IMG/VR virus record: IMGVR_UViG_3300005573_000062
Coordinates: 32,001-96,000 of that record
Length of the DNA: 64,000 bases
Source: a virus
Strand: one strand, 5' to 3'
The translations under genes and the position numbers were made by a program. Under the pieces are notes generated by a model. That model saw nothing but the letters and a program-made list of their open reading frames with translations, made no database searches and was not told the origin of the DNA. Shown here piece by piece: positions 2 to 55,881 of this stretch; positions within the stretch are counted from its first letter, which is position 1; each line of letters begins with the position of its first letter.

Positions 2-256
2 CAATCCCTTCCGGATTTTGTAATAGAAAATAAAAAACTTATTATTCAGGTTCAAGGCTGTTTTTGGCATAGGTGCCTAAAATGTTTTAAAAATAAATTC
101 TCTAAAGATGAATTACAAGAAGAGCGTTTAAGAGAAATAAAACAGGTTAAATTCTTCTCAAAACGGGGATACCGCACTTTATTTATTTGGGAACATGAAC
201 TTAGAAATCCAGAATACGTTAAATCTAAAATTCTAAATTTTATATCCCTTCATTGA
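2..256 (+). CDS. 5'-truncated Vsr/DUF559-like endonuclease
   Basis: Frame 2 is open from the window edge: ..LPDFVIENKKLIIQVQGCFWHRC...GYRTLFIWEHEL..stop. PDF, GCFWH and WE motifs are typical of Vsr-like nucleases. Not in the ORF track. Confidence 0.7.
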   Translation, partial: QSLPDFVIENKKLIIQVQGCFWHRCLKCFKNKFSKDELQEERLREIKQVKFFSKRGYRTLFIWEHELRNPEYVKSKILNFISLH

Positions 257-281
257 ACCCTCTTTCATTTTCATATATAAT
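253..281 (+). promoter_or_regulatory. sigma70-type promoter
   Basis: TTGAAC (253-258), 17 nt spacer, TATAAT (276-281), followed by an AGGAGG RBS. Confidence 0.75.
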
Positions 282-297
282 GTAGCTAGGAGGGCCT

Positions 298-834
298 ATG
301 AAATATTATTCAATTATGTTAAATATCTCAGAACATGAATCAGAAGAAGTCTTTTTCAATCAAAGATATAGTGCATATAAGTTTGCTGAAAGTTTGTTTA
401 CTGATAAGATAACTTTGATTAAAGAGCTAGAGGATGACACTAAATTAATTCTTCATCTTAAACTGAATGAAGTATATAAACAGAATGAAGAAATAGTTGG
501 TGAATATGACATAGTAGATACTCGATTAATAAAAATAGAGAAAGAAATACAAGAGGAGGTTAAAGAAGAAGGTAAACCTTACATTCCTTATAAAGAAACC
601 GAAAAAGAGGTAGAATTAAAACGAGGATTCGATGTATTTATAAATGATGAAGAGCCTGATTTTAGAATATTTCCTATTTTTGACAAATCGAAGGATTTTA
701 AGATTAAAAATGAATTTTTGATTAAAGAACCGATAGAGTTAAAAAATAATAGATATGGAACATCTAAAAAGGTTACTAAAGTTTATGCAAAGATAACAGT
801 GCATACAGTTATCGTCAAATGTATGGACGATTGA
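298..834 (+). CDS. hypothetical protein
   Basis: 178 aa ORF with promoter and AGGAGG RBS. Confidence 0.7.
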   Translation: MKYYSIMLNISEHESEEVFFNQRYSAYKFAESLFTDKITLIKELEDDTKLILHLKLNEVYKQNEEIVGEYDIVDTRLIKIEKEIQEEVKEEGKPYIPYKETEKEVELKRGFDVFINDEEPDFRIFPIFDKSKDFKIKNEFLIKEPIELKNNRYGTSKKVTKVYAKITVHTVIVKCMDD

Positions 835-2408: not shown

Positions 2409-3749
2409 ATGGCCGGACAAATAATACCAGGAGTTCAAGTCACATTAGTTCCTACTAATGAAAATTTAAACATTCCATTGAGCACAGCAGAAGTATGTTT
2501 TATCGGTACAGGTAAAACAACTATCTCTGTCGAAGATGAAGTTGTAACAAAAGGAAGTGGAGATCACGATAATTTAAATGTAGAATCAGAAAGAACCGTC
2601 TCCTCTCTAGCTAGCAAAATTTGGGATGAAAAACAAAATCAATACATATTAGACACTGATTATAAATTAGATTCAGAAAATCCAAATGCAGTCACCTGGA
2701 TAAGTGGAGGAAATGCTCCTACCGCTGGAACGAAATATACAGTTTCATATGAAATAGATAAAATTGATTCTGATTATGACTTTAAAAGTTTTTTTACTAT
2801 ATCAGATATAATCAAAGAATATGGTGAAATAAATACAACAAATACAATTTCTCTTGCTTCTTACCTATATTTTTTAAATGGTGGTAAAAAAATAAATGTA
2901 GTTCAGGTTAAACCTGTAAGTGGCAACATTACATACGCTGGTTTTACGAGTGCATTGGGAAAGTTAGCACTGAAAGAAGTTGACATAATCGTTCCTTTAT
3001 TTACAAATTCAACAGGGTTTGAAACTCTTTTTACTGATGTAAAAGCGCACGTCTATCAACTCTCGCAACCAAGTGAAGGAAAAAATAGAATAGCATTTGT
3101 ATGCCCACAAAATACGACGACATTCAATGGATATAAGACTCTTGGAACGAGTTTGGCCTCATCTAGAATGATTTTAACATATCCTCATACGATAAGTGTA
3201 AGCATAAATGGATCAGTATATAGTGTATCTGGAATGTATTTGAATGCTGCAATGTGCGGTATTCTTGGAGATACGGATACCAAATTGTCAGACCCTCTTA
3301 CTAGAAAAGAATTATTCGGGATATACGAGGTGCCAACAACACTTTTGAGATCTCAAATCGAAGAATTAATAACAAATGGAGTTCTAGTAGTTGAAACTTC
3401 TCCTCTTCAAACTATAAGAGTTGTTTATGGAATAACAACAGATACAACGTCAACAAATACAATCGAAATAAGTTTGGTTAGAATTGGAGATTTCTTTACT
3501 AAACTTTTGAAAAATATACTAGATAAAATGTTTATTGGAACCACTATTGAAAGTGGAACTTTTTCTTCAATAGAAGGAACTATAAGACAAATAGTTGAAT
3601 CTTTAGTAAAATCGAGAGTGCTTATTGGATCTTCAAATTTGTCGATTGCACGAGATTCTCAAAATCCAACTAAAATAAATATTTCGTTGAGAATTACTCC
3701 AGTCTATCCGCTTAACTACATAGACGTGAAATTCTCGATAGGATTATAA
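2409..3749 (+). CDS. contractile tail sheath protein
   Basis: N-terminal PGV, FIG, YG; C-terminal GITT..EIS.VRI.D and PVYPLNYI; contains an Ig-like insert. Confidence 0.9.
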   Translation: MAGQIIPGVQVTLVPTNENLNIPLSTAEVCFIGTGKTTISVEDEVVTKGSGDHDNLNVESERTVSSLASKIWDEKQNQYILDTDYKLDSENPNAVTWISGGNAPTAGTKYTVSYEIDKIDSDYDFKSFFTISDIIKEYGEINTTNTISLASYLYFLNGGKKINVVQVKPVSGNITYAGFTSALGKLALKEVDIIVPLFTNSTGFETLFTDVKAHVYQLSQPSEGKNRIAFVCPQNTTTFNGYKTLGTSLASSRMILTYPHTISVSINGSVYSVSGMYLNAAMCGILGDTDTKLSDPLTRKELFGIYEVPTTLLRSQIEELITNGVLVVETSPLQTIRVVYGITTDTTSTNTIEISLVRIGDFFTKLLKNILDKMFIGTTIESGTFSSIEGTIRQIVESLVKSRVLIGSSNLSIARDSQNPTKINISLRITPVYPLNYIDVKFSIGL

Positions 3750-31767: not shown

Positions 31768-32518
31768 TTTACGTTCAGTCAGAAAAATCAACGTCAATGA
31801 AAAAGTCATTGAATGTGAAGTTGAATGTGAAAAATGCCAGTATTTAAAATTATGCAATGAAATTTCTACTGAAAAATTTCAATATAAATTATTTTCTAAA
31901 ACATTTGGAAGTTACTTGATTAAAAATAACGTCATATTTCCTGTTATTAAAGAAGATCAGAAAACAACTGAATTGATGTATAAAATGTTATTAAAAATTT
32001 ACATTTCAACTAATTATAATGAAAATGTTAATTCTTATACTCTTTCTAAGTTCTTGGAAATTTCTGTTTATTCTGTTAGACAATTGATAGAGAAGTTGAA
32101 TAAATATATGGATACATCTAAAAATCGTTTTATTTACTCTTTTAATAAAGAGTGCGGCACTTTTGTGAAGCTTTATATCACTGAATTCAATAAACGGTTT
32201 AGTCATCCTCCTTTAGTTTCTGCGGTCGACGCTAATTTATTTATTCCATTAGTTAAAGATTATTCTCCTTTATTGTTAGAAAAGATAATCCAGGCCTTCT
32301 TTAATTCTACTGATCCTTTTGTGATTAATAGCGGTTTTTCTTTGAAGTCGTTATATTATAGGTTTAATTATTATCTTATTAAAGCCAACGCAGAAGTTTT
32401 ATCTAAAATGTCTCCAGAAAAAATAAATGAATATTTAGAAGGCAAACGAAATGGAAGATGGACTGGCACCGAAGAATGGGCTAAACCTTACGAAGAAGCG
32501 CTTAAAAAGATGCTATGA
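31742..32518 (+). CDS. putative replication initiator/replisome organiser
   Basis: Cys cluster, HTH-like YTLSKFLEISVYSVRQLIEKL; directly upstream of DnaC-DnaB-DnaG. Confidence 0.45.
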   Translation: MTSTKHFFDLRSVRKINVNEKVIECEVECEKCQYLKLCNEISTEKFQYKLFSKTFGSYLIKNNVIFPVIKEDQKTTELMYKMLLKIYISTNYNENVNSYTLSKFLEISVYSVRQLIEKLNKYMDTSKNRFIYSFNKECGTFVKLYITEFNKRFSHPPLVSAVDANLFIPLVKDYSPLLLEKIIQAFFNSTDPFVINSGFSLKSLYYRFNYYLIKANAEVLSKMSPEKINEYLEGKRNGRWTGTEEWAKPYEEALKKML

Positions 32519-37569: not shown

Positions 37570-37570
37570 T

Positions 37571-37604
37571 CCCCCTATTCGGGGGTCTTAATTGGCCCCC
37601 GAAT
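37571..37604 (+). promoter_or_regulatory. GC-rich alternative hairpins upstream of recA
   Basis: CCCCC-TATTC-GGGGG-TCTTAATTGG-CCCCC-GAAT. Confidence 0.55.
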
Positions 37605-37619
37605 CAACAAGAGATCAAT

Positions 37620-53324: not shown

Positions 53325-53484
53325 CTGTGGGAAAGTTAAAAGTATTAAATATTTTACTTCTGATTTTAGAATTTGTAATACTTGTTTGAAAGAAAAACTT
53401 GAGTATTCAATCAATCAAGTCAAAGAAAAGAGTAATGACATCTTGAGATATAACATAGCTTTTTTTAAGAGGAAATTGAAATGA
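53296..53484 (+). CDS. small Zn-ribbon protein
   Basis: CFNC...CNTC. Confidence 0.55.
   Translation: MKIRKRICFNCGKVKSIKYFTSDFRICNTCLKEKLEYSINQVKEKSNDILRYNIAFFKRKLK
53449..53468 (+). promoter_or_regulatory. candidate phage late promoter motif
   Basis: TATAACATAGCTTTTTTTAA upstream of the ATG at 53481. Confidence 0.5.
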
Positions 53485-53795
53485 AAAAGCTTTTCGATTC
53501 AGCTAAAAAATATATAACCGAAAAAGATTTTGATTATTATCAAGACTATTTGCAACTTAGAAAAATGTTATATGAATTAATTGTTGAATTTAAGTATGAG
53601 TTGAAAAATCAAAATATTTCTTTAGTAGAAATTGCAGATATAAATACAATTTTAAAGGATTTTGATTCATACGTAGAAAGTATTGTTAAACACTCTCCAG
53701 ATAATGAAAATGAGTTAGAAAATTATTTAGTTGAAAGATTAAAACATCTTTTTGGAGTAGAAAAATTTGATATTAATTTTGAAATAAAAAAATAA
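53481..53795 (+). CDS. hypothetical protein
   Basis: 104 aa ORF with GAGG RBS. Confidence 0.65.
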   Translation: MKKLFDSAKKYITEKDFDYYQDYLQLRKMLYELIVEFKYELKNQNISLVEIADINTILKDFDSYVESIVKHSPDNENELENYLVERLKHLFGVEKFDINFEIKK

Positions 53796-53837
53796 CTGTG
53801 TACATAGTGTTGTAAAATTTGATATAATTTTAGAAAG

Positions 53838-54248
53838 ATGATCATAAAAGACTGGGATAATCACCTCCAATATCTAGTTAGGAAATTTTTTGAGTCTCCT
53901 TTAGATGACGCAACACTTAAGGAATACCTATTTAAAAAACACCAAATCGACGATACTGAAGAAAAAGACGAAAAAGTTAGAAAGCTTAAAATCATTTTTC
54001 ATCTTTTGCACAATAATTTTTTCGCTCCTCAAGAAACTAAAGTATTGTCGCTATATCTAGGATGGATGAATGATCGTTGGATCAAACCTAGAAAAATATC
54101 TGATATTGCTAAAATAATGGGTATTAGTCAGGCGGTTACTTACAACTATTTTATGAATGCAGTTAAGAAGTTAAGGAAGTATTTCTCGGTCGAAAATAAT
54201 AGGGAGGACTATTATGGTAATAAAAGAAGCCGAAAAGGTTCCGTTTGA
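53838..54248 (+). CDS. sigma70 region-4-like HTH protein
   Basis: E.KVL.LY.G...KISDIAKIMGISQ..TY.....AVKKLR. Confidence 0.75.
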   Translation: MIIKDWDNHLQYLVRKFFESPLDDATLKEYLFKKHQIDDTEEKDEKVRKLKIIFHLLHNNFFAPQETKVLSLYLGWMNDRWIKPRKISDIAKIMGISQAVTYNYFMNAVKKLRKYFSVENNREDYYGNKRSRKGSV

Positions 54249-55881
54249 GACATTTCAGTTAGCTAAAAAGTATATAAAAGGAGATCCAGAAGGAAGTTAC
54301 GAAAAATTTTTAGATATAAGATCTGCTATTTATGAAGCTACAAATGAAGCGATTTCTGATCTGATAAGTAATAAAGGAATATATGTAGATAGAAAAAAAT
54401 TATCAGATTTTGATGAATTTTTAAGAGATTTTATTTCTAATTCTCCAAATGATCCATCACAACTCGATTCTTATATTGATGATAAAATTTTTAAATATTT
54501 GACTTCGACTATTGGTACTTCAAAAAGGAGAGTAACAAAAGAAAAGAAACCAGTTGTCGAAGAGGTTGAGAAAAAACCGGTTGAAGAAAAAGAAGTTGCC
54601 AAAAAAGTTAGAGAAAAAGGAATAGATCCTTATGAAGTGGAAACTCGAAAAATAATAAAAGATATAAGAGATGGAGTGAATTACGATGAAAACCTTTCCA
54701 AATTATTTGAAATGTATATAGATATGATTAAAAATATTGTATATAAGCATCCAGGCTTAGTTGAATTTTCAGCAAGAGAATCTGAAGGATATAAAAAAGA
54801 AAAGATACCTGGTTCTGTTTATATCGATCCTAAGATAGAAGACATTATTGCAGAAGCAATCGATCCATTTATGAAAGCGATTAAAGATTTTGATTTAGAA
54901 GGAGACACGAAATTTTCTACTTTTTTATATACCTATGTTGATCAATATTTTAAGAATTTGTATACTACTAAACAAATTTCAAAACTGCGCCAAGAAGGTG
55001 AGTTTGATTTTGTTTTAACTCGTGATACCGGAAAAATAGATAAATTAGAAGATTATAATTCAGCGAAATTAATAGGATTCAATATTGAGGAAAGTAAAAT
55101 AATAGATAGCACTGGGAAAGAATATATTGAAAATAAGGATTATAAGTTTGATGGTACAGAGATAGAATGGATTGGAGATTCTCCTAAAGAAGGAAATGAA
55201 TATCAAATTTTTATTGAAACATCTAAACCATACAAAGAGATTAGCTTATCTTCTCCTCTATCAGAGGATGAAGAATCTGAATCAACTTTAGAAGAAACTA
55301 TTCCTGAATCTTCTGTAGATATTTTAAAATTATTAGAATCCGAAGCTGATAAGATAAGAGAACAATATGCTCAGTCTGTTGGGTATGATTTAAGTGAAGA
55401 AGATAAAGACATGGGAGATCTAATAAATAAAATATGGGTGGCGATACGCGCCGAAGAGGAAGACAAAAAAAGAAGATTAGAGGACAAAGAAATTAAGGAT
55501 ATAATTTTGAAAATGATAGAAAATTCTACTGGAATAGCAATTAGTGATCTTGATTTAGAAGATACAGAAGAAAAAATTTTATATGATAAATTAGTATCGG
55601 CTGTTGATGAAATTTATAACTATCTTGTAAAAGAAAAATTAACGATTACTGATGCTAAAAAGAAAATGACTTTTTTTGATTTAATACAAGATTACGATGA
55701 AGGAACAGCTAGAAGGATAATGATGGATAGGTTTGGAGTTATTCCTTCTACCCTGACAGAGTGGCTAAGTAGGCATGTGAATCCTAGTATCGCTAAAGTG
55801 CTAGGGATAGAATTTAATACCCCAGATGGTAAATTATCATCTGAACATTTATACCAATTAATAAAAACTCAAGCTAAATAA
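54214..55881 (+). CDS. large sigma-factor-like protein (regions 2-3) with Ig-like insertion
   Basis: L...Y..MI..IV, EDII.EA...FMKAIKDFD....KFSTFLY (region 2); ISL.SPL.ED....TLEETI (region 3). Confidence 0.65.
   Translation: MVIKEAEKVPFETFQLAKKYIKGDPEGSYEKFLDIRSAIYEATNEAISDLISNKGIYVDRKKLSDFDEFLRDFISNSPNDPSQLDSYIDDKIFKYLTSTIGTSKRRVTKEKKPVVEEVEKKPVEEKEVAKKVREKGIDPYEVETRKIIKDIRDGVNYDENLSKLFEMYIDMIKNIVYKHPGLVEFSARESEGYKKEKIPGSVYIDPKIEDIIAEAIDPFMKAIKDFDLEGDTKFSTFLYTYVDQYFKNLYTTKQISKLRQEGEFDFVLTRDTGKIDKLEDYNSAKLIGFNIEESKIIDSTGKEYIENKDYKFDGTEIEWIGDSPKEGNEYQIFIETSKPYKEISLSSPLSEDEESESTLEETIPESSVDILKLLESEADKIREQYAQSVGYDLSEEDKDMGDLINKIWVAIRAEEEDKKRRLEDKEIKDIILKMIENSTGIAISDLDLEDTEEKILYDKLVSAVDEIYNYLVKEKLTITDAKKKMTFFDLIQDYDEGTARRIMMDRFGVIPSTLTEWLSRHVNPSIAKVLGIEFNTPDGKLSSEHLYQLIKTQAK

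Follow-up and report, generated by a model that had tools for sequence, protein, structure and literature searches.

We analysed a 64,000-nucleotide stretch of phage DNA (the window; positions 32,001 to 96,000 of IMG/VR record IMGVR_UViG_3300005573_000062, which is 126,098 nucleotides long and estimated to be 71% complete). The gene at 54214 to 55881 (plus strand) encodes a 555-residue protein, P0001, in which a sigma-70-family domain 2 is followed by an inserted beta domain. This domain is a homologue of the outer domain found in the tail sheath protein of the same phage (P0002; 446 residues, 2409 to 3749, plus strand). Both open reading frames are as claimed in the initial annotation, which had read the gene as sigma-factor-like with a tail-sheath-type Ig-like domain between regions 2 and 3. 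The explanation we favour, at somewhat better than even, is that P0001 is a divergent, working phage sigma factor that redirects host RNA polymerase, and that a virion-type beta module, recruited anciently, serves it as an exposed docking or spacing element. The alignments behind the analysis are shallow (5–10 sequences); A1 covers the long members of the family, A2 the short relatives alone, A3 long and short members together and A4 the sheath proteins.

Assignment of P0001 to the sigma-70 family

P0001 was assigned through matches to Sigma70_r2 and phrog_351, through profile matches in the PDB and through its fold. Sigma domain 2 (regions 1.2–2.4) occupies residues 139–258 (54628 to 54987, plus strand). 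Pfam Sigma70_r2 matched residues 208–253 at 20.9 bits (E 3e-4), under its cut-off of 24 bits, and reached 27.2 bits, above the cut-off, on the relative P0008. The family phrog_351, annotated ‘RNA polymerase sigma factor’, also matched P0001 (E 5e-5); TIGR02937 gave no match on it. When A3 was compared with the PDB, 59 of the 60 matches listed were sigma factors, the best being Taq SigA (E 9e-6) over regions 1.2–2.4. The short relatives alone (A2) matched Staphylococcus aureus SigA (E 6e-11) in an alignment that starts in region 2 and reaches into region 4, and A1 aligned to A2 with 97.7% probability over residues 136–552 of P0001 (hhalign). A profile built from five close homologues returned just a chance antibody match from the PDB (E 0.79).

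We further compared the predicted structure with solved chains. A second-look comparison (VIA) of model residues 139–255 returned sigma chains in 50 of 50 rows, with Z scores of 7.4–11.1 and a root-mean-square deviation (RMSD) of about 3 Å over 90–95 residues; E. coli sigma-70 111..446, for example, superposed on model residues 139..253 with Z 9.4 and an RMSD of 3.2 Å over 93 residues. An unbiased comparison with 48,161 solved chains placed sigma chains or a sigma-derived scaffold at ranks 1–22, and the best match among the predicted viral structures of BFVD was the sigma factor of Lactobacillus phage 521B (E 1.4e-3). Foldseek against the PDB found nothing at E ≤ 1e-3, either for the whole model or for a separate model of residues 337–555. 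Sigma-2 appears in the whole model as two helical blocks with a predicted local distance difference test score (pLDDT) of 64–79, connected with a loop at 176–214 that scores below 50. The region 2.3 aromatics are partly kept (KFSTFLYTYVDQ in the P0001 family versus KFSTYATWWIRQ in primary sigmas), and Q244 and N248 in the 2.4 helix are invariant. The region-2 motif that had been noted ahead of the insert is thus borne out by the Sigma70_r2 match, the A3 profile and the fold matches, and on these profile and model comparisons the sigma-2 domain makes P0001 a member of the sigma-70 family.

The inserted domain and the tail sheath

The sheath gene was identified through phrog_2839 (‘tail sheath’, E 7e-33), Phage_sheath_1 (E 3e-6, 27.5 bits) and Phage_sheath_1C (E 3e-4, 21.2 bits), the two last-named under their cut-offs. 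We found 21 homologues of P0002, many with precomputed PF04984 or PF17482 assignments, and by these family matches 2409 to 3749 is a contractile tail sheath gene. Its outer beta domain spans residues 37–119 (2517 to 2765, plus strand; DUF4815, 27.5–29.2 bits). The corresponding domain of P0001 spans residues 262–336 (54997 to 55221, plus strand), is of the DUF4815/phrog_877 virion type by profile and fold matches, and was modelled as seven strands and one short helix (pLDDT 59–81). The ‘Ig-like’ label of the initial annotation found no counterpart in Pfam, where no Ig-family entry matched the insert pieces.

Direct comparison of the two proteins by BLASTP aligned P0001 294–338 with P0002 69–118 (18 of 50 residues identical, 30.4 bits, E 1e-4 as a single comparison), and Smith-Waterman stretched the alignment to P0001 265–338 and P0002 43–118 with a score of 79. 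This score was reached in 0 of 1000 trials when the sheath was shuffled (mean 41.6, s.d. 6.2), in 1 of 1000 when the sigma protein was shuffled and in 0 of 2000 when the inserts alone were shuffled (mean 30.3, s.d. 5.8), so that the shuffling test proposed with the initial annotation proved significant. The sigma insert is 34–36% identical to the sheath copy, and a profile of the sigma insert (5 sequences) aligned to that of the sheath insert (16 sequences) with 94.4% probability and P 8.7e-8 over 67 columns (hhalign). Pfam DUF4815 matched the sheath piece on model positions 276–344 (E 4e-7, 29.2 bits) and the sigma piece on positions 280–341 (E 5e-3, 15.7 bits); the cut-off is 30 bits for a model of 570 positions, of which both pieces cover the same 65–70, so one sub-domain cannot reach the whole-family cut-off. 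Both pieces also matched phrog_877 (E 1e-7 for the sheath and 9e-4 for sigma), and a six-frame scan of the whole record found DUF4815-like sequence at exactly these two genes.

BLASTP, Smith-Waterman and hhalign therefore agree on the similarity between insert and sheath, at the place where it had first been noticed by eye. A chance or compositional match was ruled out by the agreement of three independent statistics and two profile libraries. From these alignments, the sigma insert and the sheath outer domain are homologous copies of a beta domain of about 75 residues.

The beta module in other virion proteins

Structural neighbours in the Atlas were retrieved for both inserts. Those of the sigma insert (template modelling (TM) score normalized by query 0.59–0.68 over 70–78 residues) comprise DUF4815, FliD_N+DUF4815, Gp37-family and Baseplate_J proteins, the baseplate-wedge tail-fibre-network family (PF25691) and a sheath cluster. 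The neighbours of the sheath insert (TM 0.64–0.76) comprise Baseplate_J+DUF4815 and Gp37 proteins, the SU10 adaptor and sheath clusters. An Atlas feature search with the sigma insert gave no usable match. With DUF4815, Baseplate_J, Gp37 and sheath proteins in both neighbour sets, the predicted fold is common to the two inserts.

Among the 48,161 solved chains, 12 of 50 rows fell on residues 256–345, and 10 of these, aligned on residues 261–345, were parts of phage tails or contractile injection systems (Z 5.4–6.4). They include TSP4 of phage CBA120 (on residues 265–335, Z 6.4, RMSD 2.5 Å over 65 residues) and a phi812 baseplate chain with 25% identity; the other solved matches are portal-tail structures of cyanophages A4 and P-SCSP1u, the Moo19 tail, the P1 tail-baseplate, the DT57C neck, a Klebsiella KP1 chain at the baseplate/sheath interface and a Streptomyces contractile injection system baseplate. 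A tblastn search with the insert against isolated phages gave weak matches in 12 records (best E 7e-3), several of them to a 238-residue ‘virion structural protein’ encoded between the major head and sheath genes of SPO1-like Bacillus phages. BFVD likewise returned virion proteins over 74–90 columns, among them the 238-residue protein of Bacillus phage CP-51 (27% identity, RMSD 2.7 Å over 78 columns).

The sheath family carries the domain in 16 of 16 aligned homologues, where it is itself inserted between the N-terminal arm and the core. Six sheath homologues (P0014, P0015 and P0022–P0025) have further domains of 90–110 residues nested within the outer beta domain in the A4 alignment, and the module therefore itself accepts insertions. 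In a 1202-residue flagellar-cap-like protein (P0007; FliD_N, E 3e-16) the beta module recurs in eight units, and it is therefore also used in non-phage extracellular filaments. As judged from profiles and predicted folds, the module is a widespread and promiscuous virion module, present in sheath, baseplate, neck or adaptor and FliD-like proteins. The description of the insert as a ‘sheath-type’ domain is thus correct in that it is homologous to the phage's own sheath, and too narrow for the range of carriers.

Relatives of P0001

A word-indexed search of 5.8 billion clustered proteins found four relatives at 58–68% identity to P0001, and an exhaustive HMMER search of 1.84 billion representatives found six proteins at E ≤ 1e-3. 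Four of these six are short sigma-like proteins: P0008, P0010 and P0011 (241–287 residues) and P0009 (404 residues). When the word-indexed search was run with the short relatives, only two of their own four members came back. Whole P0001 gave no tblastn match at E ≤ 1e-3 among 50,697 phage records, and scans of IMG/VR and of metagenome contigs with the A1 profile found no relative; a scan with P0003 yielded two further loci, L001 and L002.

Two IMG/VR contigs encode ordinary small phage sigmas of 208 residues (L008, 2968–3594) and 178 residues (L009, 2944–3480). These have the region 2.2–2.3 motif FDPSK-VKF-T in common with the P0001 family and have no insert. Through this motif they link the odd P0001 family to the common two-domain sigmas of phages.

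Insertion site, distribution and selection

In the superposed model, residues 253/254 coincide with E. coli sigma-70 446/447, close to where region 2.4 ends. The 2.4 helix extends to residue 260 and the first beta strand begins at 263, which places the start of the beta domain, in the model, within about five residues of the end of the region 2.4 helix. The insert is absent from the short relatives P0008, P0010 and P0011 and from the L008 and L009 sigmas. Because in these proteins the 2.4 helix leads straight into a short linker, the beta domain is an insertion relative to them.

The short relative P0009 has a different, unrelated insert at the same site after region 2.4 (residues ~125–255, A3 alignment). 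It resembles a second copy of the protein's own C-terminal helix-turn-helix segment. From these alignments the post-2.4 site looks like an insertion hot-spot.

All five homologues at 58–72% identity keep the insert at full length, which answers in the affirmative the earlier question of its retention, and 30 of its positions are invariant among the four relatives of the word-indexed search. We calculated the ratio of nonsynonymous to synonymous substitution rates (dN/dS) for three pairs. The insert gave 0.27 and 0.51 in the comparisons of the window with L001 and L002, and 0.10 between L001 and L002; sigma-2 gave 0.13, 0.14 and 0.11 for the same three pairs, and the C-terminal helix-turn-helix, with 81–97% identity, 0.05–0.09. 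The synonymous rate dS was 0.6–1.0, so the insert has persisted over a long divergence. These rates indicate that the insert is kept by purifying selection.

The insert could instead be a tolerated passenger without a function of its own, lodged at a site that accepts insertions. Such a passenger would show what is seen in two of the three comparisons, where the dN/dS of the insert exceeds that of sigma-2, and the unrelated insert of P0009 at the same site would fit as well. The ratios nevertheless lie well below 1, with 0.10 between L001 and L002, and a passenger would hardly be expected to remain full-length in five of five homologues with 30 invariant residues over a dS of 0.6–1.0. We consider this explanation quite unlikely.

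The region downstream of the insert

Behind the beta domain lies an acidic linker (residues 337–366; 55222 to 55311, plus strand) with a net charge of −4 to −9, possibly region-3.2-like and disordered in both models (pLDDT 30–39). It is followed by a helical module (residues 367–478; 55312 to 55647, plus strand; pLDDT 73–92) that the short relatives largely lack and of which residues 397–478 are weakly sigma-3-like, and by a sigma-4-like C-terminal helix-turn-helix (residues 479–530; 55648 to 55803, plus strand) recognized through homology to the C-terminus of the short relatives. The separate model of residues 337–555, based on ten sequences, has a pLDDT of 79 and a predicted TM score (pTM) of 0.69 and forms a compact helical body without a flexible linker between the sigma-3-like helices and the helix-turn-helix.

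Structural comparison matched the three-helix module at 397–478 to sigma domain 3 with RMSDs of 1.8–2.6 Å over 50–54 residues and Z scores of 4.6–5.3, values that are common for helical bundles. The best of these was E. coli sigma-70 453..503 (Z 5.3, RMSD 1.8 Å, 51 residues; VIA). Sigma-3 ranges of E. coli, Thermus, Synechococcus and S. aureus sigmas made up 26 of 50 VIA rows and 5 of 50 rows of the unbiased search. The models weakly suggest that 397–478 is sigma-3; two points only six residues apart in sigma-70 would then have some 140 residues between them. If so, the placement of the insert ‘between regions 2 and 3’ in the initial annotation would hold. Of the motifs that it had described on either side of the insert, region 2 stands, and region 3 is weakly indicated by the Z scores of 4.6–5.3, with no match to Pfam Sigma70_r3 on P0001 at E ≤ 10.

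The helix-turn-helix is the better supported of the two candidate C-terminal sigma domains. At its C-terminus P0001 shows homology to the short relatives (hhalign, 97.7%), whose profile aligns to SigA through region 4.1 and the first helix of the helix-turn-helix. Sigma-4 ranges superposed on this end of the model in 4 of 50 rows of the unbiased search (Z 4.4–4.9), and a CENP-B_N helix-turn-helix match scored 21.3 bits on the C-terminus. Pfam Sigma70_r4 gave no match on P0001.

The sequence alignments offer a different reading, in which the beta domain sits where sigma-3 belongs and the helices at 390–450 are a further insertion. P0001 would then consist of sigma-2, the beta domain, a region-3.2-like acidic finger and a sigma-4 with a helical insertion, and the beta module would bridge sigma-2 to the linker and lie along the spacer DNA or the beta-prime surface. 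HMMER aligned the short relatives to S. aureus SigA with regions 3.0–3.1 deleted and with the stretch after region 2.4 (‘P-L-S-I ... E-I-I-D-F-I’) on region 3.2, and hhalign and MAFFT both placed P0001 341–350, right after the insert, on that same region-3.2-like stretch. The stretch behind the insert resembles region 3.2 in being acidic, disordered and 30 residues long, and the missing Sigma70_r3 match and the lack of a flexible linker ahead of the helix-turn-helix point the same way. Against this, 397–478 superposes on sigma-3 in the rows counted above, yet with Z scores of just 4.6–5.3, and three alignment programs gave three different registers for 366–450. A replacement of sigma-3 by the beta domain is, in our estimate, unlikely.

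Two parts of the protein lie ahead of sigma-2. Residues 1–100 (54214 to 54513, plus strand) were modelled as an entirely helical N-terminal domain (pLDDT 68–92) and match no known family, Pfam giving no match on them at E ≤ 0.1. Residues 101–138 (54514 to 54627, plus strand) form a Lys/Glu-rich linker that is predicted to be disordered (pLDDT 26–47) and whose length varies among homologues.

Origin of the inserted domain

To place the sigma inserts among other copies of the module, we scored them by Smith-Waterman against the 23 other fetched proteins, a set that excludes the nine members of the sigma family. The highest mean was obtained with the phage's own sheath (77.8), followed by the FliD-like P0007 (74.6), the nearest sheath relative P0012 (70.2) and P0016 (67.6), with the rest below 50. 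The score of the own sheath could be raised by a shared, A+T-driven composition. The maximum-likelihood tree, built from 19 domain copies over 87 columns, has long branches and leaves 9 of its 16 inner branches open; with weak support, it separates sigma copies from sheath copies. The tree was built without the nested-insertion sheaths (P0014, P0015, P0017, P0022–P0025, P0029 and P0030), three fragments (P0018, P0026 and P0031) and five of the eight P0007 repeats. Forcing the sigma copies into a clade with the phage's own sheath lineage costs 9.1 log-likelihood units, with an approximately unbiased (AU) test p-value of 0.19; the value for the sigma copies alone is 0.37.

The capture of the domain from the phage's own sheath gene, proposed in the initial annotation, is accordingly neither shown nor rejected, given the P0007 score, the AU value and the open tree. 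The P0003 and P0004 inserts score no higher with P0012 than with P0002, which argues against ongoing exchange. A recent duplication from the sheath was ruled out by the identity of 34–36% and the absence of concerted evolution. As far as these sequence comparisons reach, the recruitment into sigma is ancient, and they single out no donor.

The initial annotation had raised the possibility of a coupling to virion assembly, in which the domain would bind assembling tails or sheath and the factor would be sequestered, packaged or coupled to tail assembly. In its favour stand just the homology of the two domains and the rank of the phage's own sheath as top scorer among the 23 proteins. However, the module is a general decoration of sheath, baseplate J, Gp37, neck or adaptor and FliD-like proteins, without a sheath-specific interface. 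Contractile sheaths polymerise through the N- and C-terminal arms of their core and not through outer domains, and the sigma protein has no sheath core. The low identity to the sheath copy and the missing sign of concerted evolution with it also speak against such a coupling, to which we give very little credence.

The same holds for the domain as a sensor that ties late transcription to assembly, or for a factor that rides the tail into the next host, which we regard as highly improbable. In the case of a sensor, free sheath, neck or baseplate proteins that carry the module, or a partner that ordinarily binds it on the tail surface, would bind sigma's copy and switch the factor on or off. Were this true, phages would have an equivalent of the FlgM/sigma-28 checkpoint of flagellar assembly.

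Proposed function

We propose that P0001 most likely redirects host RNA polymerase to phage promoters. Its architecture would comprise a lineage-specific N-terminal helical domain, a linker, sigma-2, the beta domain, the acidic linker, the helical module and a sigma-4-like helix-turn-helix. Within the sheath the module is itself inserted, presumably with its two ends side by side, and for this reason it could drop into the loop between sigma-2 and sigma-3 and leave the sigma unbroken. The sigma-2/sigma-3 junction of a holoenzyme lies on the outer face, by the upstream edge of the −10 element and the beta-prime clamp. The beta domain is acidic (net charge −5 to −11), and this charge together with the outward-facing site makes an exposed protein-docking or spacing module likelier than a DNA reader. 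The domain may give the sigma factor an additional contact with the polymerase or with a phage or host regulator.

Several results weigh against a working sigma factor of this kind. The AlphaFold model of whole P0001 is poor (pLDDT 56, pTM 0.26), the Sigma70_r2 match stays under its cut-off, and Pfam recognizes neither region 3 nor region 4 in P0001. A profile of the C-terminal half alone retrieved no sigma from the PDB. The insert has a higher dN/dS than sigma-2 in two of three comparisons. That no gene for an RNA polymerase beta subunit was matched in the record counts in favour of the proposal, but at 71% completeness a phage polymerase could be missed, and the search of the record for a T7-type RNA polymerase had no working control.

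Genome context

The gene for P0001 gives the one Sigma70_r2 signal in the record. Two smaller open reading frames precede it on the same strand, and the order of the three is kept in L001 and L002. The first (104 residues; 53481 to 53795, plus strand) is a stand-alone paralogue of the N-terminal domain of P0001 (BLASTP E 4e-7, 22 of 83 residues identical). The second (136 residues; 53838 to 54248, plus strand), whose end overlaps the start of the P0001 gene by 35 nucleotides, encodes a sigma region-4-like helix-turn-helix (TIGR02937, E 5e-3, positions 93–164; phrog_351, E 1e-4) and carries the only PF04545 (Sigma70_r4) signal in the genome, a weak one of 13.5 bits. The two frames may make up another sigma-like unit, split between two genes, or may act on P0001 as its partner or regulator.

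With a separate region-4-like gene just upstream, P0001 might not work in initiation at all and might instead, as a sigma derivative that binds polymerase, act as a decoy or inhibit the host sigma; other proteins such as the 136-residue one would then read the promoters. The partial loss of the region 2.3 aromatics and the missing Pfam signal for region 4 would be in line with this. The invariant Q244 and N248 and the conserved C-terminal helix-turn-helix fit a DNA-reading sigma better, however, and the short relatives show a complete two-domain sigma layout, so that a decoy appears very unlikely to us.

We also inspected the window for promoter words. Words resembling TTCATATATAAT lie 20–40 nucleotides ahead of gene starts at 274, 31489, 36336, 43825 and near 53815, and are possible promoters, for the host sigma or for P0001. 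The 8-mer TATATAAT was not enriched in the window (27 found versus 20.8 expected; 8 of 100 shuffles reached 27) and was dropped as a promoter word. At 37570–37619, a G+C-rich intergenic stretch in this A+T-rich genome, two mutually exclusive hairpins with one common run of five G were seen by eye; they could form a terminator or an attenuator.

Comparison with known sigma factors

By analogy, P0001 would work most like the small two-domain sigmas of phages or like T4 gp55. P0001 has the sigma-2 fold of the sigma-70 family (Z 8–11 to SigB, SigW, sigma-E and RpoS) and, like the small phage sigmas, which resemble extracytoplasmic function (ECF) sigmas, a C-terminal helix-turn-helix. P0001 is two to three times as long and differs from them in its extra N-terminal domain, beta domain, long acidic linker and helical module, among which the beta domain stands out. 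T4 gp55 resembles P0001 in being a highly divergent phage sigma that is identified chiefly through sigma-2. In the T4 gp45-dependent activation complex 7d7d, chain F, which we take to be gp55, superposed on residues 140–254 with Z 8.9 and an RMSD of 2.9 Å over 94 residues. The T4 late sigma gp55 works with gp33, a separate partner, and with the gp45 clamp; the 136-residue region-4-like protein encoded beside P0001 may be comparable to gp33 in this respect. In contrast to P0001, gp55 has neither an inserted beta domain nor a C-terminal helix-turn-helix.

Domains added to sigma factors are known from other sites. The non-conserved region (NCR) of sigma-70 sits between regions 1.2 and 2.1. ECF41 sigmas are reported to carry a fused C-terminal regulatory domain (PMC3426412). 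The NCR, the ECF fusions and P0001 have in common a folded domain added at the surface of a sigma factor whose core fold is kept, and P0001 differs from both in the site, after region 2.4 instead of before 2.1 (NCR) or at the C-terminus (ECF), and in an all-beta module shared with virion proteins. The carriers of DUF4815 (PF16075) and phrog_877 are extracellular structural proteins, whereas P0001 is, by its family, a cytoplasmic transcription factor. In the full-text literature searched, which includes few subscription journals, the passages retrieved describe no sigma factor with a DUF4815-type or other virion domain and no foreign domain at the sigma-2/sigma-3 junction. No paper in that literature contains both ‘sigma factor’ and DUF4815, and none of the three papers that mention DUF4815, to the extent available, concerns transcription.

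Few transcription proteins are as conserved and as well understood as sigma factors, which rarely contain whole foreign domains. Large inserts are tolerated in the loop after region 2.4, which appears in three states, with no insert, with the beta domain and, in P0009, with a duplicate resembling the helix-turn-helix; this tolerance would be useful for sigma factor engineering, although only six insert-bearing sequences are known, all from metagenomes, which limits practical use. If the beta domain does touch the holoenzyme or bind a regulator, it would represent a new surface for phage control of bacterial RNA polymerase, and a module of structural proteins reused in gene regulation.

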